Below, one piece after another: positions 13,882 through 50,936 of a stretch of 64,000 nt of DNA. A program made the position numbers and the translations under genes. The stretch covers positions 157,666,001-157,730,000 of the forward strand of contig OZ024741.1 in assembly GCA_964016885.1 (NCBI GenBank), read 5' to 3'. A model generated the notes under the pieces. That model was not told where the DNA came from. It saw only the letters and a list, made by a program, of their open reading frames with translations, and searched no databases. Each line of letters opens with the position of its first letter. Position 1 is the first letter of the stretch. Origin of the DNA: Eledone cirrhosa (lineage: Eukaryota).

Positions 13882-14219
13882 GGAAAGTTATATTTAAATT
13901 GTTGGGTTACAACTAGTAAATATTTATAACTGATATAAAAGCACTCGACAAGTATTTGGAGTATATTTACAATATTAAATAAATGGAAACTATATTTATA
14001 AAACCATATTTATTTCATTATATATATTTCAGGGATATCATATTAACAATATGCTATGCCTTCCTCAGACAAAATACAATATAAACAGTTTTATAAAACT
14101 GTTTATATTGTATTTTGTCTGAGGAAGGCATAGCATATTGTTAATATGATATCCCTGAAATATATATAATGAAATAAATATGGTTTTATAAATATAGTTT
14201 CCATTTATTTAATATTGTA
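13882..14219 (-). mobile_element. Penelope-like fold-back pLTR element: perfect 252-bp palindrome (13968-14219) plus 86-nt extension, inside (TA)n
   Basis: The arms are exact reverse complements about 14093/14094 with no spacer. Each arm holds a hammerhead. (TA)n lies on both sides. Confidence 0.7.
14105..14181 (+). ncRNA. Type I hammerhead ribozyme (mirror copy on minus strand at 14006-14082)
   Basis: CUGAGGA at 14119-14125. Stem II AGG.AUA.CAUAUU-guu-AAUAUG.UAU.CCU. GAAA at 14157-14160. Palindromic stem III UAUAUA. AUA cleavage triplet ends at 14168. Stem I auauu(g)uauuuugu pairs with augaaauaaauau. Confidence 0.75.
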
Positions 14220-14556
14220 TATATATATATATATATATATACATCAAAATATATGATAAACACAAAACGTGTTTGCATTGCAACAGACAAAGTCAGCCAT
14301 TAATGAAATAAACTAATTAAAGTGAATACAATTTGTCTGTCTCGATATAAGTCAATAAAGACAAGCTTATATTGGCAACAGCCATGATTCCTGGACAGAT
14401 TTAAATTTCAAAATCCAAACCTGTTCCGTAGACGAATTTGAACCTCGAAACCTAAATCCGTTTCGCAACGGTGGTATGTGAAATGCTCGGAAATGCCCCC
14501 TTTCTTGGAGCTTCATTATTGTAAACGACAGAGTTTATTCTCAAAATATAATATAG

Positions 14557-14614
<58 letters not shown>

Positions 14615-14615
14615 C

Positions 14616-14676
<61 letters not shown>

Positions 14677-14679
<3 letters not shown>

Positions 14680-15055
14680 ACTACAGTCATTAGGCATCTC
14701 TAACAAAATACACCCCCGTCCCACCACCCCCAACCCCATCCACACCGCCCCTTTCAATGTAAAGTTACGTTGGTGCCACAACATCCAGGCCGAAACAAAT
14801 AAGATCGTGTAGGTGTCACGACAAAAAAACACACAGTCCACGCTGTAATGTGGCCGTGTAGGTAACACAGTAAAAACCTCCCAGCCCCACACTGTAAATG
14901 TGGTTGGTGTTAGGAAGGGCATCCAGCCGTAGAAAACCTGCCAGATAGTCCTATGCGAGCAAGACAACCACTCTTGCCTCAAGTGGGAAAACTCCCGTCC
15001 AAACCCATGTAAGCGTGGAAGATTGACGTTAAACGATGATGATGATGATGATGAT
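14677..15055 (+). mobile_element. RTE LINE family 1 3' UTR with (GAT)n tail
   Basis: Closely matches 26925-27299. Contains gtggttggtgttaggaagggcatccagccgtagaaa and ends gacgttaaacgatgatgat. Confidence 0.8.
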
Positions 15056-15100
15056 ATATATATATATATATACTTCCCTGATAGTTAGATAGAGAGACAG

Positions 15101-15224
15101 ACAGTCAGTCATATATATATATATCTGTCTATCTATCTGTCTATCTATCTATCTATTTAGATAGATAGATAGATAGATAGATAGACAGATAGATAGACAG
15201 ATATATATATATATGACTGACTGT
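15101..15224. repeat. Palindrome built from (CTAT)n/(ATAG)n microsatellites
   Basis: acagtcagtc-(at)n-(ctat/ctgt)n | (atag/acag)n-(at)n-gactgactgt. Confidence 0.85.
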
Positions 15225-15559
15225 ATGTAAAATCCCCGGCATGTCTTTGTATTGTCCCCTTTCTTGTTGCGCCCTTGTGGCTAATAAAGAAATCTATCTA
15301 TTTAGATAGATATTTATCTATCATAAAGAAAGATATCTATTTCTCTATCTATCTATCTGTCTGTCTGTCTGTATATCTGTCTGTCTGTTTGTCTGCCGGT
15401 CTGTCTATCAGGAAAGGATGACTGTAAAAAGTAGAAAGATGTAACAACACTTAAGCTGTCCTTCATTCACACACTCCTCAATATCTATTCACACCACCTT
15501 GTTTTCCTCTTACCCACTTGATCTCTTCCCATCAACCTACATCCATGAGCTCCACTAGT

Positions 15560-15701
15560 CTCACTTGGGGTCCAGCCAGATCAATTGAAGATGGTTGCTT
15601 CTGGAAGGAGTGTTTACAACAACCCTCTCCAGAATAAGTGGGTGAAGAAGAAGAAGAAGAAGAAGAAGAAGAAGAAGAAGAAGAAGAAGAAGAAGAAGAA
15701 G

Positions 15702-15758
<57 letters not shown>

Positions 15759-15857
15759 AACGACAACAACAACAGCAGCAGCAGCAGCAGCAGCAACAAC
15801 AACAACAACAACAACAACAATAACGTCAACAACAACAGCAGCAGCAGCAGCAGCAGC

Positions 15858-15901
<44 letters not shown>

Positions 15902-15902
15902 C
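15560..15902 (+). repeat. RTE family 2 3' end followed by compound (GAA)20-(CAA)n-(CAG)n microsatellite
   Basis: ccagatcaattg...gttgcttctg...ctctccagaataagtgggt-gaagaa matches the 3' end of 19460-20178. Triplet tract spans 15644-15902. Confidence 0.85.
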
Positions 15903-16439
15903 TTATTTGGTGTAAGTTTTCACTCATTCATAGATTAAGTAACCAAGTAAATATTTGTAGATCAGGACAGTGACTAGTATAAATGCTGCTAGATGTAGCA
16001 GCTATTTATCTTTGGAGACTCGAACCTGCACAGGACTCGTTATTTTTTTTATCAACCTTCAAAGAATGAAACACAAAATCAACTTTAGAGGGATTCAAAC
16101 TCAAAGTGCAAAGAGCTGAGACAAATAGCAGAAAGCTGGAACAAATACCAGAGAGCATTCTATTTTATGTTCTAATGACTTTCCCAATTCACCATCTACA
16201 TTGAATAGACACTCATTTCACAACCTCATTGTTCTAAGTTCAATACCACTGTATCTTGAGCAGACCTCTTCTACAACTGTAGTTTACGGTTGTATATTGT
16301 TTTAGCAACAACTTCATACCACAGAGGAATGTAAACACCTTTAATTACAAATTGGGCAGCAGATGATTCCATGTGTAAAAGTGTCCTTGAAATATGACAA
16401 AATTTATATTTTCTATTGCTAAGTGTCTGACAAAGAGTT

Positions 16440-17135
16440 GTAAGGAGATTGTCAAATCCAAGAGAGCTGATGAACAGTATGGTTTAGTCTTGCTTTGCAG
16501 ATCTTGAAAAGGCATACAGCCATGAAGAAGTTCAAGTATCTCAGGGCTGTGTTCATGAGTGATGGAAGGCAAGAGGCTGAATTAAGTGCAAGAATTGCCA
16601 GAGTTGGAACAGTAATGTGCTAGCTTTGACATTCAGTAATCAGAAGAAAGGAGGTAGGTGTAAAAGCCAAACTCACTATCTTAAAATTGGCATTTGTTCC
16701 CTTACCTGTGATCAGGAATCTTGGGTAATGACCGAATGAATACAATGGTGAATACAAGCAGTTGAAATGGGGTTCCTCAAAAGGGTTTTGGGAGTAATGT
16801 TACTCAATAGAGTGTGTAGCTCAGAGATCAGAGAGTTGCTCCAGGTAGAGTTACTACTTCTCCGAATTGTGAGATCACAGCTCTGATATTATGAGCACGT
16901 GGTTAGAATATCTCAGGAAAGAATCCCTGGACAGATTTTACAGACAAAACCAATTGGTAGGAGACCCAAAGGTAAACCCTAAACAAAATGGTTGGATAAT
17001 ATCCATGAACTCAGTTGGTCTCGCATGGAAATCCAGCTAGATCAATTGGAGAAAGTTGCTTCTGACAGGACCTGGTGGAAGGAGTGTTTGAGGTCTCTGT
17101 CCTAACAATCCTTTCAGAAATATGTGAGTGAAGAT
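16440..17135 (+). mobile_element. RTE-clade LINE family 2 (Rex3/Expander-like), decayed C-terminal ORF2
   Basis: Paralogous to 19460-20178: KFKYL...AELSARI...EMGFL.RV.GV.LL.RVCSSEIRE.LQVE, with stops and frameshifts. Confidence 0.75.
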
Positions 17136-17149
17136 CTTGAAAGTGTTGT

Positions 17150-17420
17150 TCATTGTTTGTGTGTAATAGTGTTGGACCTGCTCATGAAATTAACAAACAA
17201 GTAATTAAGGTTTCCACTGATAATGTACCCTTAATGTAATTCTCAGAGAGATTCAGCCAGGCACAGGCTGTGACAAAGCAAGTCCTTTCAATTACAGGTA
17301 CAACTTATTTTTTTTTAGCTGAATGGACTGGAGCAATGTGAAATAAAGTGTCTTGCTCAACATGATGCCAACCTTATGATTGTGAACTGAATATCCTAAA
17401 CACTCAGCAATCTGCCTTTA
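17150..17420 (-). mobile_element. CORE-type SINE fragment
   Basis: agctgaatggactggagcaatgtgaaataaagtgtcttgctcaa is the reverse complement of the CORE region. Confidence 0.6.
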
Positions 17421-17619
17421 TTGTCCAGTAGGTATTTTGTAGCCATTTCCTGCTCTAGCACTGCAAAAATATAACCTTCATGTTCAACAACCACAACAAC
17501 CATAGGCAGTACCTTAGCTAATTAATTAAATAAATATATAAAGAGATTTTTAAAGAAATAGAGGAAAGAAAGTGATGTCCGAATCTGTATCCTCCACCTC
17601 TAGGTGGAGAATACATTAC

Positions 17620-17970
17620 AGGATGTAGAATACATTGCTCCCAAGTAGGGCAAGAGTGATGCGCTAGAACAGCCACTCCACCTCATGGGTCTCACACCTG
17701 CAGGTGGATAGCCACCTCCCCTGCGATAGCAGTGAGTAGGGATGAGGTCCAGGGGCCAAAAATGCCAGAGGTCTCCAATGCTACAGGTTCTACCACGGAC
17801 CTATTAGAGAGTGGCCGATACTGGGACAGTTTTCTCTCTTCAGATTGGCAGGCAGCAGAGTCTGGGCTGATAGCGGAATGCACTAGGTTGCCATTAGAGT
17901 AGGTGTCAAAACGTGTGAGTTCCAGAGAAGGAGCCTACTCCCACGGAATGGGAAGATTGTCATACCAATT
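17620..17970 (-). mobile_element. CRE-clade non-LTR retrotransposon, restriction-like endonuclease fragment
   Basis: Translation GMTIFPFRG...DTY...AA..SE.RK..QY..L....V.PVALETSGIFGP...WLF.R. Paralogue at 44690-44860. Confidence 0.7.
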
Positions 17971-19459
17971 AAATTGTCATAGCAACCACACTATACAATA
18001 CCAAATCAGAAATATGTATGTATATGTGTAGCAAATTCTCTTCGCACATGCTGACCCCTGAATGACATCTGGCTGCTATTTGTCTTTATCTCACTTGGCG
18101 TAAGTAGTCTGGAAAGGCTGGCTAGCTTGAGGTGAAGCAAGATAAGTTTTTCTTTGTCTCATTTGACTCTGGTTCCTTGGGAGAGAAGCATCGCTTTGAC
18201 CTGCTCAAGCAAGTAGCGAGATGTAGCACTTATCAAAAATAAATGTTGGCCCTATCGATAAGGGCCTGATAAAAATTCTCCCAACAACACTTCAACCACA
18301 AACAGAATCATCTGTCCCTTCATACAAACAAAGATTCTTCAGCATGACACAGAGACCTTTTTTTAACACTGTATTCATTTGTAAGTGCTACCATCAAACT
18401 TTATATTTTTTTGATTCAAAGTAATCATATTCTTTTTCCTTTTTGCTGAAGTGAAGTAAAGTTCTATATCTGACCAAAATGATTGTATTTGTCATGTTTA
18501 TCATCCTCTTCAACAACAACAACCACTAACTTCGCTTCAATTGGTGACTTCGATGTAATCAAACTATTTACAAAACTTTGCTTTATATGTGCTGATGTAT
18601 GTGTGTCTATGTGTGCATTTCTCCATGTTTGTTTATTAATAAGTGTGTTAAAGTTTTTTGTTGTATGTGTAATGTATCTACATCTGTGTGAGTATTTCCA
18701 TGTAGTGCAGCAATAGTGTATCCATATCGGTGTGCACATGGATGAAGGAGGGTACTGGATGCGGTGGGAAGAGCAGATTAAAGGAAGAGGGGTGATGCAT
18801 TTAAGTCAATGTGGGTAGATGTATTTAGAAAGAAAATAAGCTGAAGTTCCCTCTGGTGGCAGGTATCTGTGGGTCTGGTACAGGAAGTGATCCCAAGGGT
18901 GAACACATGCTGCCACTGAGCTTCAAAAATGGCATTATTTGGAGACATCACCACTATTAACACTCACTTGGTGAACTGATTTCCTTAGTTATAGATAATT
19001 TATCAGCCAAACCTAACTCAGTGATTACCACATCAAAGATGAAATATGTTACCAGCAGTAAAGTGTGAGGAACTAAGATATATGATGGTGGGAGGCTGGT
19101 GAGAAAAACTATAAATCTAGTCGAAAACCAGATACAGAGGACAAGTGAGTAATGGGTAGTTAATGAAACCACCTCTTTCATGCCAGCCAGCAAATGTAAA
19201 ACAAAATGAATTTTGAACTCATATGCAGACGGGCTTTTGAAAGAGCAACCTCGAATGCAAGTCCATTCCCTTATCAACAGCCTGTATTGCATTTGAAATA
19301 TATTACATAATAAATGTATTACCTCATAGATTGTCTGAAGACGTTGTGTTAGTAATTGCATGATAACAGCATTACATAATTAATAACGTCACAGAAATAT
19401 GTATTACAGTGAATTTCGTAATAAAATAAATTATGAAAATCTAGCCTTCATATTTTCAA

Positions 19460-20178
19460 ACAGGAAAATCAGTACTGCAAAAACGGAGACTCTTTTCCTA
19501 TCAAGGAAGCCTGCACAGTGCATCCTACATGGAGTTCCACTGAAGCAGGTAGAGAAGTTCAAGTTTCTCAGGATTATGTTCACGAGTGATAGAAAGCAGG
19601 ATGCTGAATTAAGTGCAAGAATTACAGAAGCTGCTACAGAAATGTGCTAACTTCATCATTCAATCATCAAAAGAAGGGAAGTAGGTGTACAAACCAAACT
19701 TGCTGTCTTCAATTTGGTATTTGTGCCAACCCTTACCTACGGTTATGAATCTTAGGTAATGAGTGAAAGAGTATAATTGCAAATACAAGTGGCCAAAATG
19801 GGGTTTCTCCAAAGGGTCTTCGGAGTAACATTACTTGATAGGGTGTGTAGCTCAGAGATCAGAGATTCACTCCAGGTAGAGCCGCTATTTCTTTGCATTG
19901 AGAAATCACATCTCAGATACTACAGTCATATGGTTAGAATGTCTCAGAAAAGAATCACTGTACAGGTTTTACAAGCAAAACCAATCAGCAAGGAGCCCAG
20001 GAGTAAATCTTGAGCAGGGCGGTTGGAAAATATCCATGAGCTTAGCTGGCCTCTTTTGGGAATACAACTGGATGAATTGGAGATAGTTGCTTCTGACAGA
20101 ACCCACTGGAAGACATGCTTAAGGACTCTGCCCCCTTTACCCTCTCCCAGAAATAAGCGGATGAAGAAGAAGAAGAAA
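19460..20178 (+). mobile_element. RTE-clade LINE family 2 3' portion with (GAA)n tail
   Basis: KTETL...LKQVEKFKFL...AELSARI...PTLTYG.ES...MGFLQRV.GVTLLDRV.SSEIR..LQVEPL...LRYYSHMVRM; ends in gaagaagaag. Confidence 0.8.
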
Positions 20179-20211
20179 GCCATAGTATTTTTATTATTAT
20201 TGTGTGTATAA

Positions 20212-22075: not shown

Positions 22076-22081
22076 TATATA

Positions 22082-22391: not shown

Positions 22392-22397
22392 TATATA

Positions 22398-22704: not shown

Positions 22705-22736
<32 letters not shown>

Positions 22737-23019: not shown

Positions 23020-23043
23020 TATAAATATATATATATATATATA

Positions 23044-23995
23044 TAGAAAAGATGAATATAAAAGGAAAGTGCTTTTTTTAAAAAGGAATTTATTAGGTAT
23101 TGACATGTTTCTGTAACAGACGGAATACCTATGTATCGCTGCTTGCGTAATCATATAATGTTAGCAAGTATTCGATAGCAAATGTATAATCAGTTGTCAC
23201 TTCTTCAGAGATTTTGGATAAATTGGATAAAATCAGAAAAATTGAAGTATTTATATTAGTAATAGAGGAAGAAGAGAGGGGATAGTATATGACAGATGGT
23301 AATTCAATTTACTGCTAAACAAGTATATAAAGGGTTTCTAATGAGAATACCATGAGTAAATGGTTCATTTTATCTAAATAAGAATTTTTGGGAGTGCCAA
23401 TTTTAATCTCTACTTGACCAATTGGACAGTGGACAGGGCTGGTCATTTGGTGTAGTAGTTTTAATTATAAAGTGTCAATTGGTCAAGTAGAGTTTTAATT
23501 ATAAAGTGTCCAATTGGTCAAGTAGAGATTAAAATTGGCACTCCCAAAAATTCTCATTTAGATAAAATGAACCATTTACTCATGGTATTCTCATTAGAAA
23601 CCCTTTATATACTTGTTTAGCAGTAAATTGAATTACCATCTGTCATATACTATCCCCTCTCTTCTTCCTCTATTACTAATATAAATACTTCAATTTTTCT
23701 GATTTTATCCAATTTATCCAAAATCTCTGAAGAAGTGACAACTGATTATACATTTGCTATCGAATACTTGCTAACATTATATGATTACGCAAGCAGCGAT
23801 ACATAGGTATTCCATCTGTTACAGAAACATATGTCAATACCTAATAAATTCCTTTTTAAAAAAAGCACTTTCATTTTATATTCATCTTTTCTACATTTTC
23901 TCCGGAATATAATTTATACTCGTTGAGCAAACCTACACGTACGCTGTTCATCTCTAACGTAACGATATATTATCACTACATTATTGATAACCTGA

Positions 23996-24000
<5 letters not shown>
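23044..24000 (+). mobile_element. Penelope-like fold-back element: about 386-bp inverted arms (23044-23428 / 23507-23893) plus 107-nt extension, inside (TA)n
   Basis: Arms differ by about 3 substitutions and one 2-nt indel. Hammerhead-like core CUGAAGA (23727-23733)...GUGACA/UGUUAC...GAAACAU(AU)GUC (23824-23835). Confidence 0.65.
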
Positions 24001-24028
<28 letters not shown>

Positions 24029-24965: not shown

Positions 24966-25174
24966 ATAAAAATATATATATATAATATATATATATATCC
25001 AAACCCATGCAAGCGTGGAACATGGACGTTAAACGATGATGATACACACAAATGAGGAAATATGGTGTGAAGTTGGTTTTGTGAAGACTAGGGAGTAGAG
25101 AAGGCTAACAAACATGTAACATAGATGTAAATATATACACACACACACAGAGACACACTTGTATATATATATAT

Positions 25175-26135
25175 CATCATCATCTCATCATCATCTTCGT
25201 TTTAACATCCATCTTCCACGCTAGCATGGGTTAGACAGGAGTTGTCCCACTTGAGGCAAGGTTGGTCGGATGACCGTGTCTCACTCATATAGGACTATCT
25301 GGCAGGTTTTCTACGGTTAGATGCCCTTCCTAACACCAACCACATTTACAGTGTGGAACTGGGAACTTTTTACTGTGTTACCTACACGACCACATTACAG
25401 CGTGGACTGTGTGTTTTTTTGTTGTGACACCTACACGATCTCAATCTCATTATCTCATTTATTTGGACTGGATGTTGTGGTACCAACTTTACAGAGAGAG
25501 GGTGGTGTTGGTGGAAGTGGGAGGATAGAATAGGGGTAGTGGATTGGGGTGTATATTTGGTTAAGAGGTGCCTACTGACTGTAGGTTTCGCTTTGTACAT
25601 AGGCAAGGTGGATCTTCTGTATTACTGCGTAGCGCCAAAGATCTCGATCCAGTGACATTGTCTTAGAGAGATGCAAGTGTGCAAGGTCGGAATTTATCAG
25701 ATCATCCCTGGTTTTTCTGGGTCAACCTACTCCGTAACTACCATCAATTTTGATCGCCTTGCACTTTTTTATACAGCTGTCGTCTTTCATGCGCATCACG
25801 TGGCCATACCAATGTAGACTTCTCTCAAGTAAACAACATCTGATCCCTCTTATTCTTAATTTCTCACTTAGTTCATTTATGCTTTGCCGTTCACGTATAT
25901 TACTATTACACATCCAACGGAGCATGCATGCTTCATTCCTTTCCAGTCTACGCAGGTCCTCTGCATGTAATGCCCATGTCTCACTGCCATGTAGCATTGC
26001 TGTTCGTATACAGGCATCATACAATCTGTCTTTCATTTTTAGAGAGAAACCTTTTGTGGCCAACAGCGGTATAAGCTCTCTGGACTTTTTCCCGTTCTGA
26101 CTCTGGTTACTGTACTTTCAGAACACCTCCACCAC

Positions 26136-31415: not shown

Positions 31416-31624
31416 CAATAATAATAAGGAATATGAACAAGTATCAATATGGCATCATTGTGTTTATTCATGTGCGACATGCATTTGATTTGATTGATCA
31501 TGAAAGGCATATCACTTGTGAATAAAAATAATGATGCTATATTGAAACTACATTCTAGCTCCTTATTATAATTATTATTATTATATCTATGTATGTATGT
31601 ACATATGTATGTATGTATGATGTT

Positions 31625-32490: not shown

Positions 32491-33066
32491 TCATCATCAT
32501 CATCATCATCACCGTTTTATGTCCGTTCTTCCACACTAGCATGGGTTAGACGTGTTGTCCTGTTTTTGGGCAGTGTCCAGGTGGCTGACCTTGTCTTGCT
32601 CATACAGGAACTGATTCTGGCTTGATTTCTACAGCTGGATGCCCTTCCTAACACCAACCTCATTTACAGTGAGTGCTGGGTGCTTTTTTTCTGTGGTGCC
32701 TATACGTCCACTTTGCAGTGAGAGGGGGTGGGAGCATATTGTCTATATGCTGCAGCTTCAGCTTGTTCCTGTGAGAAGTCGGGTCTTCTGTATTACTGCG
32801 TGATGCCAGAGGTCACGGTCGTGTGTCATCGCCCTTGAGAGGTGCATTTGGGTAATATATGTGTGTGTGTGTGTCACAATAAAAAGCCCCCAGTCCACTA
32901 CGTAAATGTGGTTGGTGTTAGGAAGGGCATCCAGCCATAGAAACAAAGCCAAAACCAGTCCAGCATGAGCAAGACATGGTCATCTGATCTGGCTTCACTC
33001 ACAATGGAACAACTCATCTAATCCATGCTAGCAAAAAAAAAATGAACATTAAATGGTGATGATGAT
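32491..33066. mobile_element. Two RTE family 1-type 3' ends, head-to-head (32491-32850 minus, 32873-33066 plus)
   Basis: ggatgcccttcctaacaccaacc followed by its reverse complement ggttggtgttaggaagggcatcc; (cat)n and (gat)n tails. Confidence 0.7.
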
Positions 33067-33105: not shown

Positions 33106-33222
33106 TATATACATATTTAGAATAACTTTACAAAGTTAGCTAAGGGGAGATTGCTAACAGATCAACCTAAAATAAGCAATCTCTCCTCAGCTAACTTTGT
33201 AAAAGTTATTCTATATGTATAT
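33106..33222. repeat. Short fold-back palindrome (about 50-bp arms, 19-nt spacer) next to (TA)n
   Basis: tagaataactttacaaagttagctaaggggagattgct pairs with agcaatctctcctcagctaactttgtaaaagttattcta. Confidence 0.8.
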
Positions 33223-33258
33223 ATAAATATATATATATATACATACACACACACATAT

Positions 33259-34575
33259 ATCATCATCATCTTCGTTTAATGTCCATCTTCCATGCTAGCA
33301 TGGGTTAGACGAGAGTTGTGCCACTTGAAGCAAGGTTGGTCGGGTGACCGTGTCTCGCTATATAGCACTATCTGGAAGGTTTTCTACGGCTGGATGCCCT
33401 TCCTAACACCAACCACATTTACAGTGTGGAACTGGGAACTTTTTACCGTGTTACCTACACGGCCACATTACAGCGTGGACTGTGTGTTTTTTTGTCATGA
33501 CACCTACACGATCTCGATCTCTTTATCTCATTTATTTGGACTGGATGTTGTGGTACCAACTTTACAGAGAGAGGGTGGTGTTGGTGGGAGTGGGAGGATA
33601 AGGTAGGGGTAGTGGATTGGGGTGTATATTTGGTTAAGAGGTGCCTACTGACTGTAGGTTTCACTTTGTACATAGGCAAGGCGGGTCTTCTTTATTACTG
33701 CGTAGCGCCAAAGATCTCGGTCCAGTGACATTGTCTTAGAGAGGTGCAAGTGTGTAAGGTCGGAATTTATCTATCATCCCAGGTTTTCTGGGTCTACCTA
33801 CTCCGTAACTACCATCAATTTTGATCGCCCTGCACTTTTTTATACAGCTGTCGTCTTTCATGCGCATCACGTGGCCATACCAATGTAGTCTTCTCTCAAG
33901 TAAACAGCATCTGATCCCTCTTATTCCTAATTTCTCACTTAGTTCATTTATGCTTTTCCGTTCACGTATATTACTATTACACATCCAATGGAGCATGCAT
34001 GCTTCATTCCTTTCCAGTCTGCGCAGGTCCTCTGCATGCAATGCCCATGTCTCACTGCCATGTAGCATTGCTGTTCGTATACAGGCATCATACAATCTGC
34101 TTTTCATTTTTAGAGAGAAACCTTTTGTGGCCAACAGCAGTATAAGCTCTCTGAACTTTTTTCCATCCCGTTCTGACTCTGGCTACTGTACTTCCAGAAC
34201 ACTCTCCAACGCTGCTGATTTCATCACCCAGGTAACGGAAAGTGTCCACTATTTCTATAGAACCATCTGGGCAATAGAAGGATCTAGTATCCTGTGGGCA
34301 CTTGCTACTTATTGCACCTGAGCATCGGCCACATATAAAGTCTACGTTCTTAGATAGTTTACCTATGATCCCACTACATCTTTTATGTACCCATAGTTTG
34401 CATTTGGGACATAAAATGGAATTTCTGCCTACTCCTTTCCTACACACTGAGCATGGCCATTTTCCTGAGGGCACCTGTACCCTATTTTCCTTTCTACAAA
34501 CTAGAACTTTAGTCTTAGACAAGTTAACTTTAAGGCCTTTTGATTTTAGGCCGTGCTTCCCTTTTTGGAATTTCT
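33259..34575 (-). mobile_element. RTE LINE family 1 (RT C-terminus with PHD finger, ORF2 end, 3' UTR)
   Basis: GLKVNLSKTKV...C4HC3...EIVDTFRYLG...ARVRTGWKK...RLYDACIRTAMLHGSETW...RRLHWYGHVMR...GRPRK, with frameshifts. Confidence 0.9.
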
Positions 34576-34586
34576 TTGATACAATG

Positions 34587-34861
34587 AAGTTTCATTTTAA
34601 AATGTTTTTATTGTACATTGACCGTTGCACATGTTTCACAGATAATTGGCTCGATATTTTCATTGATGTGATAGATCTGACTCCCGCATGGATTTGTTCA
34701 TCAGACATGTGGATGTGAGATATATATGTGTGTGCCCGTGAGATGTAAATGTTTTGATTGAGTCTACATGTCTGAAGAGCAGATCAATGCTGACCTCAAG
34801 GCAGTTATCTGTGAAACATATAACGGTTAATATACAATAAAAATATTTAAAATTGAAACTT
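34587..34861. mobile_element. Older Penelope-like fold-back element with hammerhead cores in both diverged arms
   Basis: Plus arm: CUGAAGA (34772-34778), GCAGAU/AUCUGU, GAAA (34813-34816). Minus arm: CUGAUGA (34704-34698)...AUCUGU-GAAACAUG. The outer arms align as acaataaaaa.attt.aaa.tgaaactt. Confidence 0.55.
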
Positions 34862-36349
34862 GGTTATATCATACATAATATATACATTCTGCTACAACAT
34901 CAAGTGATCACATTTATGTCACCTTCAGTAATCAACAATATTACTGGATCTGTCAGTGTTAATGTCCTGTAATTTGGTGGCTCGTCAAAGGAGAGATTTA
35001 TAAAATATGTACCAGTCCTGAAAAAATAAGTGCTGGTGTCGATATGATCGACTAAATCATTTTAAGTTGGTGTCCCTGCGTGGTCGCAATCTATGAACTG
35101 AAACATGCAAAGCAAAAAAAAAAAAAGAAAGAAAAGAAAAAAAAAAGAATAGGTTAATTAATTAAAAAAAAAAAAAAAAAGGTTAATTAAAAAAAAAAAA
35201 AGAATAGGTTAATTAATAATAAAATCCAAGGGGGATAATTATAATCAACAAGATGAAAAATAGAAACATTGAATATAAAAGTTATTTCCCTTGTAAACTT
35301 ATGTACTTTTGTAGTTTTCTCCCTTGCAATCATGTACGATTAGCTTGACCGCGGTATACCACAATAAAACGAAGTCCAGTTAAATTTGAAATAGTTTGAG
35401 TGACATTGCTCCCTAACCTACCCCGATATTGAAGTTTAAATAAAATCAGTTTATCTGATCTACCCGCTATTTTGATTAAGTGATTTTAATTAAAGGAATA
35501 ACAACATCAGATGGAAATTCTTTGCTGTATTTGTTCCGGCTCTCTACGCCCTGAAATAAAATTCACCGCGTTCAGCTTAGCCATTAATCTTTCGAGGTAG
35601 ATAATCAAAGTACCAGTCTAATGCTGGAATTGATTTCCCTACTACTGTCAGCGACTCTATTGTTCCTTCTGATATCCTAAAGCTGCAAACATAACCGAAC
35701 GAAATAAACTACGGAAATATCACAATTTATCGGTAAATTACAAGTATTTTTTCTCTTAGTAGAATTCGAGACATTCAAGGAGCTGGTTCATTAACTATGT
35801 GGTTAATTATATATGTTTGTATTCACATGTGATAATTATGGGATATGTGTTCAATTATATATATGTGTACCACTATACTGTGTGTGTACTACTATCATAT
35901 ATATATGTGTACAGCTATGATGCGTGTATAGCTATTATATATGTCCACCGCGATGATATATGTGTACAGCTGGAATATATATGTACAAATTTTACCCTCC
36001 TTTTTCTCACCACTATGTATTTTCTCTATAGACCGTGAATTTGGCAGAAATATTAAAATGTTGGATGGTTTCTGCGTTTCAGTCCCCGTCGAGATTCACT
36101 TTGTGTTTTCATCCATTCGCGACCGAAAATGAAAGTGCCAGCCCTGTGCTGGTACAGCCTTCTCTCATTCTAGGGTGTTCTGCTGGATCAAAGGAAGGAG
36201 AATCGTAAAGGTGTTTGATTTTGCTCACGACTTCATAGACACCAACAAACCTTATTGAAAAAATAGTATATACTACCAAGTCATATTCGATTTCGAGTGA
36301 TGACTGTAGTTTGTATCTTATCAACGTTGTCGTTAATACTACTGAAGAC

Positions 36350-41130: not shown

Positions 41131-41199
41131 TGACAAACACATATGCACACTCACACATACATATATGTAGATAAATACATATTTATTATATATATAAAA

Positions 41200-41310
41200 A
41201 TGACTTCTACAAGACTAGAACTGTTTCATTGTATGAAATCATCAGGACATCTCTGCTGATTTCATTTGTAACTCTGGTACCCCACTCCCTGACAAAATTG
41301 GGCAATCTAC
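41200..41310 (-). mobile_element. Penelope-like pLTR fragment with hammerhead-like core
   Basis: Minus strand CCUGAUGAuuucauacaauGAAAcaguucuaguc. Same family as 42982-43130 and 50670-50800. Flanked by TA tracts. Stem I is not evident. Confidence 0.4.
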
Positions 41311-41360
41311 ATATATATATACACACACGTACATATATATATATACTAAGAAACATATAA

Positions 41361-41401
<41 letters not shown>

Positions 41402-42525: not shown

Positions 42526-42981
42526 GAATTTGGCACTATTATTTAATTTAATATGTTACAATTCATATATGAATATTGTGTCAATCATCATGTATATGTG
42601 TGTATTTATGTAATATATGTATGTAATATATATATGTATGTATCTCGAACCTATCTTGTATCTGTGTACGTAATGTATGTGTGCATCTATAATGTATGTG
42701 TATGTATTATGTATGTATATATATATATATATATATATATTGTGTATCGAATGTATGTATGTGTATGTATTATATCATCTTCGTTGGTGGAGGACTTTTA
42801 CTGTTCTGGTATTCCGGCAAATAAGAGAAGAAAGAAAGAAATGTAGAGATTTAACCCACTTTATCATTACTAGTTCTGTATTTTAAGCGTAGCGAATTGA
42901 ATCCGAAAACCAAGTCCTCGGCAACGCGACAGTATTTTTTTCGTTGTATATAAATATGTGTATAATTTTAGACACAGAGAT

Positions 42982-43130
42982 ATGACTTCTACAGGACTAG
43001 AACTGTTTCATTCGTATGAAACAGTTCTAATCTCGTAGAAGTCATTTCTTTATATAATAAAGACCCCTATACTCTACCAACGTATTGAGTACCTTTTTAA
43101 ACTGGTTACTCTCCGACACTAGTCGGGAAT
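42982..43130 (+). mobile_element. Mini fold-back element (30-bp arms, 4-nt loop, about 85-nt extension, then (TA)n)
   Basis: atgacttctacaggactagaactgtttcat-tcgt-atgaaacagttctaatctcgtagaagtcat. The extension matches the reverse complement of 50670-50760. Confidence 0.6.
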
Positions 43131-44689
43131 GTATGTATATATATATATATATATATCATCACCGTTTAACGTCCATTTTCCATGCATGGGTTAGACGGGT
43201 TGTCCACGTTGAGAGACAAGTCTTGCCAGAATTGGCCACGCCGTACCTTACTGACGGGACTGTAAATTTGGCCGGGGTTTTTACAGCTGGATGCCCTTCA
43301 TAACACCAACCATATTTACAATATATATATTCCAGCGTTGAGTTTGAAAAAAAATCAGAAAAATCAAACTAACTCTTGATACAAAAATAACCACCTGAAA
43401 CCACCCCTTCTTCTATGATATAAAACTGTTTATTTTAAAGTCTTTAAATTTATCTAAAAGCCTTCCATCATAATTTTAAGTAAGAACGTTTATGTTCTAA
43501 ACACCAGCTTGTAAGAAAGTTATATTTTACATGTATATCTTATATTTAATCTTTTATATTTGTTAAATGATAGATATACACACATACTATAGAGTTTGTA
43601 GAATAAAAAACAAATTTGTAAATAAAGCTATTACTAAAATACTTTTCTAAATCCCTCCAAGTGACTATTTTCAAAATTATTTGAAAATCTTAGACGGGTT
43701 GAAGCTACCTTTGAAGGATCCTCTATATGATCGCTTGCCCTGCTAGATGTAACAGCCAAATCTTTCTCAAATTACATGTCTGGCGGGAGGGAGAAAGAAG
43801 GAAATTATATTGATGTAGTCAGTGGTTATATGCTTCTAAACAGACGAGATGGTCACGGTTGAAGTGCTTTTGATTTGTCTGTTAGCCCAGGTCCTGCTTG
43901 ATTAAACAACGAAAAATAACCGAGAGAAATAGCAGCCAAATTCCTTCACATGAAACCCTATAATATTACGAATGGAAGGGGGCGTTGATTAATGTAGTCC
44001 TACACTCAAAAACCACAAAAGCATCAATGTTACAGAATCTGATTTGCGACTGTTGGCTGTGAAATCATCGAAAGTAATCGATGATAATGACTCGAAGCGA
44101 ATCAGCTATTTCATGTCATGACGGTATATTGCTTTGAGACAGGAATGAAGGTCATCCAATCACTTTTCCTTTCTATAAAATGGGTAATCTTTCGGTTTAA
44201 GATCACTGTAAATAACAAAATTTGGCAATGTTATTTGATTTATTTGTATAATGATTCGAGTCCGAATGATTTACTACCAAATAGACTGAATTATGAAATC
44301 AAAAATAGTGTGATAACAGGGGTACATTAAGTAAGCATTGGGAGTGGGGGTCGAATATTATTTAGGGTAGTAAAAAATTAAGTTGACCCCTTTTTAATTA
44401 TTGTGGAGTCGTTGGCTATATCCCAGTCAGCCCCATCTTATTCTGCCACTGTCCGTGTTGGCTTTAAAGAACAAGTTATTGGGACCCTTGTAATTTTGTG
44501 GGGCCACTGTCTAGGAATGTTCGATTTTTATAGACTATTCTGTACAAACATTTATATCGAAAGTTTACAGAGATTACCAAAAGTGTGTGATGCTAAATCG
44601 AAAGATTACCACCTAAGAAGGTATTGCATTGCTGCAATACCTTTGATCATAAGTTTGCTTTAACAAGGGATATAGCAAAATATGTTGCG

Positions 44690-44860
44690 ACTTCTGGTGT
44701 CCTTGGCCCTAGGACCACCTCCTTACTCACCATCATCGGCACCGAGTTGACTATCTGCATGTGTGAGCCTTGCGAGCTGGAATGGCTCTTCCAGCGCGTC
44801 TCCCTCGCCATCCTCCGGGGAAACGCCTTCTCTATTTTGTCCGCCGGGTGCGCGGGACCC
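44690..44860 (+). mobile_element. CRE-clade retrotransposon C-terminal fragment
   Basis: TSGVLGPRTTSLLTIIG...EWLFQRVSLAILRGNAFSIL. Confidence 0.7.
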
Positions 44861-45099
44861 CCCCCCCCCATTTGCTCATAATAGTGAAAGATGGGGAAAG
44901 TCGAAGAGACGGAGGCAGTGGGAGTTTGGTTCCATTGTGTTCAGACCTGGTGGCTATGTATATATTTATTTACTTCACCACATTAACATAACCATGTTGA
45001 TGATAAGCTTTAACATTGTCACAAAGTGTTTGAACAGTGTCGCTATTCATTTTAACGATCGATCTTTATTCATAACTGAAACCGTTCCTGGTTCTACTA

Positions 45100-45306
45100 T
45101 ACAAAGTTGTTTATTTTAAAGTGTTTATATTCATCTAAAAACCTTCCATCATAATTTTAAGTAAGAACCTTTAAGTTATGTTCCAAACATCAGTTTAATA
45201 ATGAGAATGTTAGTTATATTGTTAAATCCTTCCAAAGTCTTGATTGTTTTCGAAATAATTTGAAAATCTGTGGCTTTCATTTGACGTATGGTAACAAAAG
45301 GTTAAT
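45100..45306. mobile_element. TTAA/CCC-terminated MITE fragment (second piggyBac-like family; relatives at about 43400-43690, 52270-52460 and 53519)
   Basis: Ends ggtaacaaaagggttaa. Shared internal ccttccatcataattttaagtaagaac. Confidence 0.5.
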
Positions 45307-46204
45307 TAGTCATGTTCTATCACCGTATGTTACTAACTACGACATCTACAATTCTTTCTCGGATAGGTGGTGGTAATGGTGTAATGAATAGGTCATCTTT
45401 GGATTTAAGATCACGTCAGTTTTCTCTGTCGAGGAAACTGACGTTTTCCGCAATTTACTTTTAAGCAACTTTTGATATCCATTGACATTACAAGCCTTTA
45501 ATGTAATTTTGACGCATTTTCTTTGATATTAAACTACCCATTTTTAATCACATTTTATGTTCTTCAATAATAATTATGTATTATAATAAATCATCCAGTC
45601 TTCATCGTTGTAATTTGCTAAGTGTTACTAATTACTTTGTGATCTTAAATCGAAATATTACTCACATATATAATATGCCGATTTATCTATCAACCTCCCA
45701 CGCATATTGTTTGAACCATATCACTGTGAGGCCGTGTATGAGAAAGACAGGGTTATTGCTATAGTGGTCAACTGTGTCCTTGAAGAGATGGACACATAGA
45801 TAGGATAGATTCGTTGACAGATAGACGAACAGAGAAGTCATATAGATTGACCGATAGATACTTACGCACACACACGAACTCTCTCTCTCTCACCCACAGA
45901 GCAATAATAAAAAAGAAAAAGAGAAATAAAATTGCAATCATAAAATGAAAGTATATCGATCTATAAAATCGATTGGATTAAGTGAGGAAACAGTACGCAG
46001 CATTTTGAAGGTCACAGAAAAGCTATCTAATTAAAGATATATCATATACTATGTCTACTATTTATACTCGTGTTAAGTGAACTCAATTTTTTGTCGAAAT
46101 ATTTAATTTATCCACGTATTTCACGTATGTGAGAAACGGGCTTAGTCTGTTTAAGAGGTCAGTAGCTCCGATTAACTCTTAATCGTCATGTACCACATGA
46201 ACCA

Positions 46205-46500
46205 CGTTAGAAATGAGTCTTTAGTTTACTGAATCGCGTTAGAAATGAGTCTTTAGTTTACTGTAAATTTTCACAATGGTCTGTCCACCAGTAAAAAAGA
46301 AAACCTAACAAAAAAAAACTCTAAGCATTTGAATTAACAACACTTCCTTTATCACACAAACACCCACACACACATATATTGTGTGGGTATGTGTGTATGT
46401 AATAGTCAGCTGATTTTTGCTGTGGGCTGGGAGTGTGTGGAGGGAAATACTAGTGATCGATACGTGTGTGGAGGGAAATACTAGTGATCGATACGTGTGT
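46205..46500. repeat. Two local direct duplications (32-bp period at 46205-46263; 31-bp period at 46433-46500)
   Basis: cgttagaaatgagtctttagtttactg x2; gtgtgtggagggaaatactagtgatcgatac x2. Confidence 0.85.
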
Positions 46501-47106
46501 GTATATATAGATACACACAGTAAAAAAAGGGAAGAAAACACGGTTCAATCTAATCTGAAAGCTATTATTTATTTATGTTCATATACGGAACAAAAGCAGT
46601 ATGTGTGTGTGTACACACACACCTTTTTAAATAATCGTAGTTATGTTGTCTTATATATATAGATGTATATATGTATGTATACACATGTAAATATATATAT
46701 ATGTGTGTGTGTGTACACACCCAGATAAATGTATGTGTGTAGGAGTCACGTATCTTAAATGTGTGTTCTATGTCCTCCAATAGAAAGCGATATTATTGTC
46801 TCACGATACAAACACAATTAGGTAGGATAATTAGAGGTGAATCTTTGTTTTTAATTAACAACTATCTTCTATTATACTGTCACTGAAAAACGAAAACAAA
46901 GAATCTTTCGTTGTTTTTTTTCTCTAATTCTTTTTCCTTCTTTCATTCATTCGTAAACGATTCAAAATGAAAGTAAACGGCGGATATATAAAAGTAAATA
47001 ATGCGCCATAATCCTATTTTAAGGGTTTCATTAAGTGAAAGGGAAATATATACATACACACATATATCCAGCTACAAATGAAAATTGTAGTTAAAATAGT
47101 GTTATA

Positions 47107-47274
47107 CATGTAAAATTCCATTATAACGAATTTTTCAGTATAACGAATTATTTTCAGTCCCAGAGGTAATAAACAAACGCTCGGTTTGTTTCAGTCGATC
47201 CCGTTATAAAGAATTTTTCGTTACAACGAATTTTTCTAATACCCCGTGAATTTCATTATAACGGAATTTCATTA
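47107..47274. mobile_element. Tc1/pogo-type MITE
   Basis: Imperfect TIRs aaattccattataacgaa / ttcattataacggaattt, subterminal ttataacgaa repeats, TA flanks. Confidence 0.65.
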
Positions 47275-47285
47275 TATATATATAT

Positions 47286-47688
47286 ATATTAAAATACAAA
47301 TATTAATAAAATAGATGTTCTTTTGATCAATTACATTTTATTATACATATTTCGGATGTACAACAGTACGTCCTCATCAGACAAAATATAATGATACATG
47401 ACATACCCTGAGATGTTAAATGGTTAAGATTTACATTTACCTTGATTAAATCTTAACCATTTAACATCTCAGGGTATGTCATGTATCATTATATTTTGTC
47501 TGATGAGGACGTACTGTTGTACATCCGAAATATGTATAATAAAATGTAATTGATCAAAAGAACATCTATTTTGTTAATATTTGTATTTTAATATTAATAA
47601 CTCTGGAAAATTATTTATCGTAGAGTGCTTCCAATCTACTGTAAAACTAATTCTTTGATATATTCATTGAATCTTGTTTAACTCTTTA
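47286..47688 (+). mobile_element. Penelope-like fold-back element: 148-bp arms (47286-47433 / 47447-47594), 13-nt spacer, 94-nt extension, inside (TA)n
   Basis: The arms are reverse complements with one mismatch, and each contains a complete hammerhead. Confidence 0.72.
47485..47554 (+). ncRNA. Type I hammerhead ribozyme (mirror copy on minus strand at 47326-47395)
   Basis: Stem I auuauauuuugu/auaaaauguaau (12 bp). CUGAUGA at 47500-47506. Stem II GGA.GUAC-uguu-GUAC.UCC. GAAA at 47527-47530. Stem III UAUGUA. AUA triplet ends at 47538. Confidence 0.82.
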
Positions 47689-48125
47689 ATATATATATAA
47701 TTTTCGTTGACCCTTGCGGTATGCGGCCGACCTGTCGCACTTGGTGAATTGATGGTTGTTGTTTTTTTACTCTAGCTTTGATCAAATTATTTTGTGCATT
47801 TATTTGTGAGGTTCCTAGCAATAATTGCATTATATATTATGTTTATACTTTCATTCTGTAAGAATTATAAACAATTTGTAATGTTATTGATACAACTGTA
47901 AATAAAAGCTTGTATGTATGTATGTATGTATTTTTATAAAATGAGAGAGAGAAGAGACAAAGAATTAGATAGTTAAATGTACTGGAACATTTTTATAATT
48001 TTACTGGTTTCAGTCATTAGACTGCTGCCATGGTGTGGCACCGCCTTGAATTTAGTAATAATGTCGAACCCAGTACTTATGTTATAGACTTTTGGCAAGT
48101 TATAGGACATAAAAACGAACACAGA

Positions 48126-48128
<3 letters not shown>

Positions 48129-48163
<35 letters not shown>

Positions 48164-48251
48164 GCACGCACGCACGCACGCACGCTCACACGCTCACACG
48201 CTCACACGCTCACACGCTCACACGCTCACACGCTCACACGCACACACGCAC

Positions 48252-48308
<57 letters not shown>

Positions 48309-48337
48309 CTTTCTCTCTCTCTTTCTCTCTCTCTCTC
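48129..48337. repeat. poly(A) followed by (CACG)n/(CACACGCT)n/(CA)n/(CT)n compound microsatellite
   Basis: Direct inspection. Confidence 0.9.
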
Positions 48338-48739
48338 CAAAAGTGTGTTGCATACACGACGGACTGAATTCAAAAACGTGGTTACCAGGTGATTATCTTA
48401 ATTACAGTTTTGTTAGTAACTCTCCATGAAAAGGAAGCACAATGGCAGTTTTCTTGCGGCAGTGTATAAACACAAAATAAAGTGGTACTGCTGGTACATC
48501 AATTAAATGTAAAGTAGCTGGCATTAGGAAGGGTATCAAACTGTAGAAATCATGCTAAATATAGAACATATCAACAGTCTAGTCTTGGACTGTAGTTCTA
48601 TGGGAAAAAGAAAGAAAAGTAGGTAGTTGACGTTCCTCCATGTTAGGTTGAGTATTCAACAGTAAGTTATTTGGAAAATTAAAATAAAAACTCCATCAAA
48701 TGCTCAAAAGATTCATTAGAAGTAGTAGATAGCACTTTA

Positions 48740-48850
48740 CTTTCTGAGTTCAAATCCCGCCGAGGTTAACTTTGCCTTTCCTCCTTACGGGGTTGATAAA
48801 ATAAAGCAGTAATGCACTGGGGTAATTGCTGGCCTTGTGCAGAAACAATT
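48740..48850 (+). mobile_element. SINE family A 3' half
   Basis: ctgagttcaaatcccgccgaggttaactttgccttt...ggccttgtgc-agaaacaatt. Confidence 0.75.
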
Positions 48851-48959
48851 ATTAGTAATGAAGGTGGATATACCAAAAGTGTTGTAGCCAAAGAATGGTG
48901 TGGAAGAAATTCAGGGAGCTGTTTACCTTTACTGCAAAGTGTGGTCAAATTATGATATT

Positions 48960-49380
48960 TGTGTTTTTACTGCTATACTGCATGGTAGTGAGAAGTGGGC
49001 AATGAATGTAGATTTGAAATGGAATGAAGCATACATATTTTTCTAATCCATGCTAGCGTGGAAGAACGGACGTAAAACGATGATGATGATAGTGTACATG
49101 AACAACAGAGCATAAATAAACTAAGAGAAATGCTGACTATAAGAAGAATCAGATGCAGTGTGTAAGAGAGCCAATTGTGCTGGTATGGACAGGTGATGTG
49201 TAAGGAGAGAAAGAGCTGTAAATGGAACCTATGTCTGATAGACCAGCGAAGACATGGGACGAAGTTGTAAAGAATGACTTCGAGAAACTTAATCTCGTGA
49301 AGATGACATAGGATTGTGATAACTGGTGACTTGCTGTGCTGAAAACAACCCAATTACCAGTACAAGCACAGTGATGCTAT
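48960..49380 (+). mobile_element. Old RTE LINE C-terminal fragment
   Basis: ILHGSEKW...LCWYGQVM...TWDEVVKND. Confidence 0.6.
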
Positions 49381-50412
49381 ATGTAAATGTGATGAAAAAT
49401 TAGACTGCATGATGTGGAGATATCTGATAGCCTAGAGTAGATGGGTAACCTCATTAGTGTAAGTGGCATTATGGACTACACTCAGTAGCACTTCTAATGG
49501 TTGACAAACAATCAAACCCAGACAACATAGAATAGAGAAGACTCTTTTGTTTTGTCAAGGAGCTGACAACTTATCTAGTGCTTTTGCCATGATAACATAT
49601 ATTTAATACCCCTGTAAAATGATTGAAGACCAAACTAAGACAACATAGGGTGGAGAGGACCCTTTGGTCTTGTCAAGGGCCCAACAACCTCTAGTGTTAT
49701 TGTCATGGTAAAATACACCTTGTACACTCGGTGATTGATGTTAGAAAGGTCATCAGCCATAGAAATCATGCTAAAATATGGAATGTATGAGCTATATACC
49801 AGTGAATACCTACCCCATAACTATTGACCGCACCATCCATGCCTCCCCCATTATCAACTCTTAGGTATTCTCATCATCGCTACATCTCCCTCCTACTCAT
49901 CACCAAGTCAAATTACATCACACTTGCTATACATTCATAACTTTATACTTATCTTCCTTCTCCTAGCCCCACCTCTAGTGTAAGTGATTTACATAAATAC
50001 ACCCACCACACACTGGAAAGAAGTTGGTGATAGGAAGGGCATCCAGCCATAGAAAGCTTGCCAAATAAAGGGTTGGGAGGACCCTTTAATTATGTTAAGG
50101 ACATGATAATCTCCCTAGCATTGGTGATCTACATGATAAATGCACCCAGTACATGCTGTAAAGGGGTTGGTGATAGGAGGGGCATCCAGCCATAAAAATC
50201 TTGCCAAATAAATTGTCATGATAAAATGTACTGGGTGGAACATGCGCCATATGTAAGCAAAATGCTGACCCTGGGCCTGTTTAGTAGACCTGCTTCAGTA
50301 ATCACTCTGTGAAGACTGGTCCAACTGTTGCTAGCAGGGAAAGCAGATGTTAAATGATATATGTATATATATATATATATGTATTTTGATGCTTATAATA
50401 ATAGTATTAGAT

Positions 50413-50656
50413 GCTTTCACTGTATTTTAGCTACAGAAAATAGTCTAATAACATCATATATAATCAGTTTAACACTCTTATCTGGACAATAAGATGTGTA
50501 GGTTTGATTTCCATGTATGCTGATGCCCATTCTTTTCCATTATGGGGATTCATATGTCCTGTTATGAGACTATTCTCTGTTGTGAAAATATGGTGAAAGC
50601 TTTTAATTATATTTTCAAAATTTTCCATCACTGCTGTATTCTGAATCACATGTGCT
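50413..50656. repeat. Diverged fold-back palindrome (arms about 50413-50453 / 50560-50600) between TA tracts
   Basis: gctttcactgtattttagctacagaaaatagtctaataaca versus the reverse complement of the right arm, gctttcaccatattttcacaacagagaatagtctcataaca. Confidence 0.6.
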
Positions 50657-50936
50657 TATATATATATATGGATTCCTAGTGGGTATTGGGAGATGATTAC
50701 AGTTAAGAGGTACTCAATACTTTGGTAGAGTATAGGAATTTCTATATTATATAGAAATGACTTACTTCTACATGACTAGTACTGTCTCATTCATATGAAA
50801 TAAAGAAAGTCCATTTTGCTTTTCCTTATGCATACAGTTTGAGTTTTCAGAGATCAAGTGAAGTGGTATTTTTCTTCAGCAGCAGTTATACACACTCGTA
50901 TACAGCCAGTCATCATTGCAGTCAACATTACCCCCC

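Follow-up and report, generated by a model that had tools for sequence, protein, structure and literature searches.

Short head-to-head insertions with hammerhead ribozymes in Eledone cirrhosa, probably derived from Penelope-like elements

Are palindromic loci that carry hammerhead ribozymes back to back mobile elements of their own, or are they by-products of the insertion of a retroelement? This question was raised by a stretch of 64,000 nt from Eledone cirrhosa (assembly GCA_964016885.1, contig OZ024741.1, positions 157,666,001 to 157,730,000 of the forward strand), here called the window, to which all coordinates below refer. The window is AT-rich animal DNA with many microsatellites. A preliminary description made from its letters alone had proposed a recurrent system of fold-back elements without open reading frames (ORFs), inserted into (TA)n and related to Penelope-like elements (PLEs), possibly a mobile class in its own right. 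We analyzed the loci within the window, and their families were followed in public sequencing runs and in related loci from metagenome assemblies. Based on this analysis the loci are probably insertions by several PLE families that target (TA)n, very short and truncated at the 5' end, inverted head to head and with variable centres. That the particular families of the window are indeed PLEs appears very likely.

Structure of the seven palindromic loci

Inverted arms were confirmed at all seven loci for which a palindrome had been described, with an identity between the arms of 79-99%. Divergence was lowest in loci E (0.7%), A (0.8%) and B (1.5%), followed by G (4%), D (12%), C (20%) and F1 (21%). 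Since the arms differ by 0.7-21%, a fold-back artefact is argued against.

Locus A begins with a tail, its long 3' end, on the minus strand (13882-13961), with a candidate PLE-type tail hairpin at 13933-13967. The left arm (13962-14093, minus strand; CUGA at 14068, predicted cut after 14019) and the right arm (14094-14219, plus strand; CUGA at 14119, predicted cut after 14168) each carry a type I hammerhead. They adjoin without a spacer, and 131 of 132 positions were identical between 13962-14093 and 14094-14225. The right arm has a stem I of 8 bp, and its short end is followed by (TA)n. Locus E is composed of a left arm with the short end (47286-47433, minus strand; CUGA at 47380, predicted cut after 47342), a junction (47434-47446, plus strand), a right arm (47447-47594, plus strand; CUGA at 47500, predicted cut after 47538) with a stem I of 12 bp, and a tail as the long end (47595-47688, plus strand). 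Both arms carry a type I hammerhead and were identical at 147 of 148 positions. Of this junction, 47438-47446 belongs to the native sequence of the family, which in other copies runs on upstream.

The arms of locus B (left, with the short end, about 23041-23428, minus strand; right, 23507-23893, plus strand) agreed at 402 of 408 positions and are separated by a spacer of 78 nt. This junction (23429-23506), as read from the sequence, is a patchwork of local repeats of 34-35 nt adjoining a short near-palindrome. The right arm holds an atypical hammerhead core (23727-23835), and the tail (23894-24000, plus strand) is the long end, followed by (TA)14.

The remaining loci were less complete. Locus C (34577-34871) is an old inverted pair of about 80% likeness (74 of 92 positions between 34577-34670 and 34780-34871) with decayed hammerhead cores in both arms. 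The palindrome of locus D (42978-43049; 30 of 34 positions between 42978-43011 and 43016-43049) carries no more than the 3' half of a motif resembling a hammerhead in its arms and is followed by a tail on the plus strand (43050-43130) with a candidate tail hairpin of Hydra type (43066-43100; see below). Locus F1 (50400-50656), a further old inverted pair (52 of 66 positions between 50400-50465 and 50547-50613), has a short extension and no convincing hammerhead. Locus G (33106-33223; 46 of 48 positions between 33106-33155 and 33175-33223) is a small palindrome in TA-rich DNA with neither core nor tail. Both are candidate PLE remnants.

The shared layout that had been described before holds in part. 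A one-sided extension was found in A (about 80 nt, on the left on the plus strand), B (about 107 nt), D (81 nt), E (94 nt) and F1 (about 43 nt), and none was seen at C and G. Flanking (TA)n was clear on both sides of A, B and E, one-sided or decayed at D, F1 and G, and absent to the left of C. In the window, any target-site duplication is masked by (TA)n. The distances from the predicted cut to the palindrome end in the three youngest loci were as described before, with 51 nt in A, 56 nt in E and 58 nt in B; the tailed arm ends 137, 150 and 165 nt past the cut (putative in B), respectively. In A, B, D and E the 3' ends take two fixed positions and just one of the arms has the tail, a geometry which would reflect a defined priming mechanism.

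Hammerheads had been described in the four larger loci, and two of these retain intact-looking ones. A type I descriptor that demands a cleavable triplet besides the core and both stems (I and II) gave four matches, namely both arms of A and both arms of E, compared with a mean of 0.025 in 40 local dinucleotide shuffles. The arms of B and C contain CUGANGA..GAAAC but failed the descriptor, as stem I does not form in register. No full core was present in D, F1 and G (the 3' half in D, none in F1 and G); taken together, the motif is decayed or atypical in B, C and the D family including locus H (see below). An Rfam scan of the window found no hammerhead match at E<=1, its other matches being chance microRNA-hairpin matches and two tRNA-like ones. 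In locus B (23727-23843) we also noted 8 nt in the long stem II region that are exactly complementary to the first 8 nt past the putative cut. This pairing, which the predicted fold uses, could be inhibitory or could point to a hammerhead of unusual topology.

For a read-through RNA, folding predictions place the ribozyme arm in a duplex with the arm upstream of it (-188 to -641 kcal/mol, with 94-98% paired), so that the ribozymes would be trapped. We infer that they are passengers, mostly locked in this duplex. A role of the loci as a large source of self-cleaving RNA, as suggested earlier, is unlikely, given a complete fold at two of seven loci only and arms that are predicted to pair. If the loci are transcribed, long double-stranded RNA (dsRNA) would be a possible product, and a more likely one than cleaved RNA.

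Position of the centre in the window families and in metagenomes

Whether the centre of a palindrome recurs distinguishes a mobile unit from an insertion by-product. The same centre was not found at most loci of a family, neither in families E and D nor in the metagenome families.

For family E, four runs were compared with positions 46800-48100 at 80% likeness, and the figures given are those of the best-supported rows. Run X1 provides contig depth, possibly from the sample of the window itself, and run X7 provides raw reads of another study. Summed depth in X1 was 5e4-3e5 in the arm bins versus 5.6 in the left flank, i.e. about 10^4-fold deeper. Family E is highly repeated; summed depth gives no copy number, as the tool itself warns. 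At 47433-47437 the depth was 665-1222, about half of it bearing inserted letters. Less than 0.4% of the family-E depth crosses the centre of locus E, and more than 99% does not. Upstream of 47438, other sequence follows in 395 X7 reads and 13 contigs. The last letters of this continuation can pair with 47443-47449, so that the centre of locus E lies on a native hairpin. Only 7-11 raw X7 reads cross 47433-47436. At least five other arm-to-arm joints were found in the family (47353>47493, 47388>47493, 47394>47438, 47351>47624 and 47353>47519), with a low depth of 8-31 and an inverted side reaching 9-52 nt upstream of the cut. The centre is thus locus-specific in family E, as shown by the other joints and the native upstream continuation. 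The preliminary description had itself named locus-specific centres as the result that would reduce the loci to ordinary truncated and inverted PLE insertions, and this result was obtained.

At the opposite end the family is uniform. Continuation from the end of the family-E tail into (TA)n was seen in 403 raw reads, so that this end and the target are common to the family, and the earlier assumption of (TA)n targeting is supported. A contig of 197 nt matched the tail-to-flank junction of locus E exactly; the centre was spanned by none of the contigs listed. Read ends at 47548, 47551 and 47588 were rejected as biological ends: they coincide with AATT/TTAA sites, and the library is of the restriction-site-associated DNA type. 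The tails (47604-47663) vary among copies far more than the arms, which suggests subfamilies differing mainly in the tail. In run X5 (organism B), where the family is about 10^4-fold shallower, a contig that ends at 47594, the position of the short end, matches 47438-47594 (157 nt) with a single difference; it may come from a close relative, from transfer or from contamination.

The D family is represented by three copies in the window, of which only D is folded. Locus F2 (50668-50800, minus strand) is an unfolded copy with a tail (candidate hairpin at 50701-50736), and the unfolded locus H (41182-41245, minus strand) has a CUGAUGA..GAAAC core with a weak stem II and a short end running into TA-rich DNA. 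The centre of locus D sits on a small hairpin that is present in the unfolded copies as well. Truncation at varying 5' positions, whether an inverted copy is present or not, was accordingly seen in families E and D, to which this evidence applies; families A, B and C were considered within the window.

Further loci were obtained from metagenome assemblies. A hammerhead pattern of the type found in the Hydra clade of PLEs (Craig et al. 2021, PMC8557442) matched at least 120 loci of animal DNA. A pattern specific for A and E gave no metagenome locus. Two of the loci, among the matches listed, carry whole ORFs of 721-722 amino acids. Proteins of the Hydra clade are marked by RWK, DKT and CxCX5C motifs and lack CCHH. 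The protein of locus L053 shows RWR, DKT and YRDD, and searches of Pfam and PDB with it gave no match. A PLE ORF was recognized in the comparison loci L053, L075 and L032. The C-terminal end of this ORF lies upstream of the ribozyme in some members of metagenome families F1, F3 and F4, and in L032, L020 and L101 the end of a PLE ORF is connected to family F1. Metagenome family F2 resembles, by eye, the end of Hydra-2_Amil.

Seventy-eight metagenome loci were examined in detail, 60 of family F1 and 18 of family F2. Their 3' ends form two groups, near +30-40 and near +100-110, and an inverted partner was present in 26 of the loci (both among the matches listed). The pairing count leaves out the duplicate L100 and loci with arms cut by a contig end (L080, L096, L087, L115, L029). 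A short end was paired with a tailed one in 19 of the 20 scorable loci among the matches listed; the exception, L028, is a perfect palindrome of a whole contig (7080 nt) and an assembly artefact, hence 19 of 19 real loci. Across all metagenome families the centres were located 20-75 nt upstream of the cut and clustered near 40, a range towards which the search pattern and the short contigs bias them. Where both flanks were available, they shared at least 8 nt in 14 of 16 loci, compared with 20 of 240 mismatched pairs, although such stretches may include bases of the element ends. Because the flanks are shared in 14 of 16 loci, each inverted pair would correspond to one insertion event. A recurring junction sits on a native micro-repeat, and in L114 the non-overlapping arms keep 7 nt of the usual junction.

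In folded and unfolded Hydra-type copies alike, the 5' ends are concentrated immediately beyond the ribozyme, at 33-48 nt upstream of the cut (L009, L012, L017, L025, L041, L072 and L092 among them). This is partly search bias and possibly also marks a real stop site or the 5' end of the RNA.

A hairpin of 7 bp that includes a bulge of 2 nt and is located 40-52 nt past the cut is common to thirteen diverse Hydra-type tails. In these, 95.6% of the cells were paired and nine showed double changes, a score reached in 0 of 500 shuffles, though inflated by relatedness and by the selection of tails through a motif. A model of this tail gave ten matches in the 64 kb, with locus D at rank 1 (E=0.0003), F2 at rank 2 (E=0.008) and A at rank 4 (E=0.084), all on the expected strands; the E-values are rough. 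Rank 3 (2553-2595, minus strand, E=0.078) has no hammerhead or inverted arm that we could see beside it. A sequence-only profile of hammerhead and tail gave no match under E=1.7. The hairpin is a candidate RNA signal for binding of the reverse transcriptase (RT).

Proposed mechanism of insertion and alternative explanations

The following course of events would produce the loci. The GIY-YIG endonuclease of the element would cut both strands of the (TA)n target, and each target 3' end would prime its own complementary DNA (cDNA), a far initiation site giving the tailed arm and a near site the short arm. Both cDNAs would stop early. Microhomology or templated filler would then serve to connect their ends, in many cases where a small native hairpin is located. 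The result would be two ribozyme-bearing 3' ends joined head to head, with a join point that differs between copies. We lean towards such double priming rather than self-priming, as it fits the strict pairing of a long with a short end, the finding that either arm can be the longer one at the centre, the occurrence of both end types alone and the patchwork junctions. The strict pairing suggests two priming events per insertion. That the near-constant geometry points to a defined priming mechanism had been proposed before, and is supported. ORF-linked PLE families of the Hydra clade in the metagenomes show the same layout as the window, with variable centres. The proposed link to PLE ends is also supported. 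It is strong by architecture and partial by sequence, because the tail model recognizes D and F2, weakly A, and neither E nor B.

Several observations weigh against truncated PLE insertions with variable centres. No RT or endonuclease ORF linked to families A to G was found in the window by Pfam, tblastn or profile searches. Loci F1 and G provide neither ribozyme nor tail evidence. The tail model does not score the tails of E or B on the right strand, and its training tails were picked by a motif first noticed in the window. Up to about 0.3% of the family-E depth does cross a centre near that of locus E, and this depth does not resolve exact shared junctions. In the metagenomes, one identical junction was present in five loci with different flanks, belonging to two families, and a later deletion could explain the non-overlapping arms of L114.

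Self-priming is a serious possibility, short of an even chance. Here one cDNA, or an antisense RNA, would fold back at a small hairpin and copy itself, and the endonuclease would trim the second arm at the near site. The near-zero spacers in A, D and E, the equal arm starts in B and the centres on native micro-hairpins in E and D are in line with this course, as is the recurring metagenome junction, which keeps native bases on the tailed arm. The arms of metagenome family F1 differ by 0-3 (mean 0.7) within a locus versus a mean of 1.67 between loci; however, family F2 shows no such gap. Against self-priming, it is the short arm, not the tailed one, that extends further 5' in L024, L016, L044 and L084, templated patchwork typical of two-end joining was seen at the junctions of L015, L109, L035 and locus B, and both end types occur alone in unfolded insertions. 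Non-overlapping arms (L114, L029 and the joint 47351>47624) do not prove that priming took place twice, as they can also result from deletion, and self-priming with later deletion is possible.

It is unlikely that the source RNAs were short ORF-less masters, i.e. non-autonomous PLE derivatives resembling retrozymes or pseudo-long terminal repeats (pLTRs), inserted by the same route. Such derivatives exist (10.64898/2026.07.22.740005; PMC8557442), family E is very abundant, and no remnant of a PLE ORF was found in the 64 kb. Against such masters, tandem arrays of units are absent from the window, and the metagenome families are dominated by equally short copies, yet longer ones reach the ORF. 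We consider it quite unlikely that the families lack a coding parent and are mini-PLEs, consisting of a hammerhead and a conserved tail hairpin and copied in trans by an RT dimer which primes once at each of two sites, with a small fixed-centre subset of family E now mobile as a palindrome. If this were the case, the genome would be seeded with long, perfect hairpins by the thousand.

It is highly improbable that the palindromes are elements without an ORF whose centre is fixed and which move as a unit with PLE enzymes acting in trans, and the separate mobile class envisaged in the preliminary description is not supported. In its favour, no ORF is nearby, a depth of several hundred crosses a centre near that of locus E, and one junction recurs in five metagenome loci. 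Yet nearly all of the family-E depth misses the centre of locus E, at least five other joints exist, the native upstream continuation is common in the family, D-family copies occur unfolded, the centres of ORF-bearing Hydra-clade families vary, and the junction seen repeatedly belongs to two families and is situated on a native micro-repeat. Fold-back chimeras of assembly or library, or DNA elements like miniature inverted-repeat transposable elements (MITEs), are hardly credible in spite of the artefact at L028, the tail-less palindrome G in TA-rich DNA and the lack of a listed contig across the centre of locus E: chimeras would not give the observed arm divergence, the 197-nt contig and the 7-11 raw reads support locus E at the tail-flank junction and in the centre region, and MITEs would show neither ribozymes nor the one-sided tails of A, B, D, E and F1, only G being symmetric.

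Setting in the window and comparison with known systems

The Pfam search covered 144 of the 180 listed stop-free stretches of the window, and no RT or GIY-YIG domain was found in these 144. No Hydra-type ORF remnant was detected in the window by tblastn or profile search. A frame in arm B that resembles an endonuclease end was rejected, having no homolog and no profile match, and so was a weak tblastn match at 57203-57286 (E=0.017), which adjoins a pogo-like remnant. Two cores at 57280-57408 were discarded as they lack inverted arms. The sequence of the inverted-repeat candidates at about 25040-25200 and 31480-31520 lacks the layout of the palindromic loci, and the candidate at about 32720-32840 overlaps a dispersed repeat.

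Other features of the window are a tandem array of a 31-bp unit (3126-12514, about 302 copies, 88% matches), a broken transposase of pogo/Tc5 type (55927-56987, minus strand; Pfam HTH_Tnp_Tc5 E 7e-8, DDE_1 E 4e-7) and a palindrome of (TATC)n versus (GATA)n (15097-15228; arms of 63 nt, 97% complementary). Related fragments like long interspersed nuclear elements, possibly of RTE type, are located at 25287-26117, 33360-34591, 58324-58701 and 60291-60432. The first pair is 95-97% alike, a PHD-like Cys-rich piece is included, and locus C abuts one of the fragments. The tRNA-like Rfam matches (12881-12950, minus strand; 1871-1928, plus strand) barely exceed the gathering score and are probably heads of short interspersed nuclear elements.

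The layout of inverted PLE insertions with one tail is already in print, and the loci of the window are new members of it; one-sided tails of PLEs have been described as well. A count of the pairing of long with short ends or a description of the tail hairpin was not found in the literature covered, with older subscription papers on PLE structure outside this scope. In PMC8557442 the origin of the inverted structures is named as open, and in PMC3846280 self-priming was proposed. Pairing in 19 of 19 real loci, taken with the target duplications, the patchwork at the junctions and the covariation in the tail hairpin, offers a countable test of double priming. In an annotation, ORF-less PLE remnants of this kind might readily be listed among MITEs or unknown repeats; they would, if they are transcribed, give long dsRNA instead of cleaved RNA.

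PLEs with an adjoining inverted 5'-truncated copy and a tail at one end only have been described (PMC8557442). The Hydra clade of the same study targets (TA)n, has canonical hammerheads and includes an Octopus family. Its members Hydra-1_Obim, Hydra-2_Amil and Penelope-13_HM share with the window the (TA)n, a type I hammerhead near the 3' end and two positions of this end, and Penelope-13_HM also has a 5'-truncated inverted copy, with the hammerhead listed on both strands. According to the tables of PMC8557442, 12 of 24 consensus sequences end 30-70 nt past the cut, 11 of 24 end at 88-153 nt and one at 355 nt, compared with 51-58 and 137-165 nt past the predicted cut in the window. The Hydra-type tail hairpin may be common to D and F2 and, with less support, to A. 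Unlike Hydra-clade PLEs, the copies of the window measure 120-960 nt and lack an ORF, and stem II is longer in A to C. By eye they do not match the end of Hydra-1_Obim. Their tails (80-107 nt) exceed the 30-40 nt quoted for PLEs generally and the approximately 65-70 nt of the metagenome families. The insertion preference for (TA)n is not exclusive to the Hydra clade, as Naiads share it, and B, C and E are candidates for membership in this clade.

In Penelope and Poseidon, head-to-head repeats, palindromes at the junctions and a tail on one inverted pLTR have been reported, and self-priming, including that on antisense RNA, was proposed (Arkhipova et al. 2013, PMC3846280). There the inverted pLTR is usually attached to a long element, whereas the inverted pair is the whole insertion here, at a density of roughly one every 5-10 kb. 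Frangieh et al. (2024, PMC11167929) found that both target strands are cut and extended and that two RT start sites bound the tail. In that system a dimer is predicted, and the ribozyme needs protein and is dispensable for insertion.

Pairs of hammerheads 100-700 bp apart on opposite strands were found by Cervera and de la Pena (2014, PMC4209133), with no cleavage by a single minimal motif. These minimal hammerheads of metazoan PLEs are of type I with a short palindromic helix III and a long helix II, as in the window. Stem I is longer in A (8 bp) and E (12 bp), where the motifs are known from sequence. Finally, the retrozymes without long terminal repeats (PMC7229834; 10.64898/2026.07.22.740005) are likewise ORF-less, PLE-related and equipped with a type I hammerhead. 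No head-to-tail tandem array of hammerhead units was present in the window. Retrozymes consist of such head-to-tail tandem units, whereas the loci analyzed here are head-to-head pairs with variable centres.

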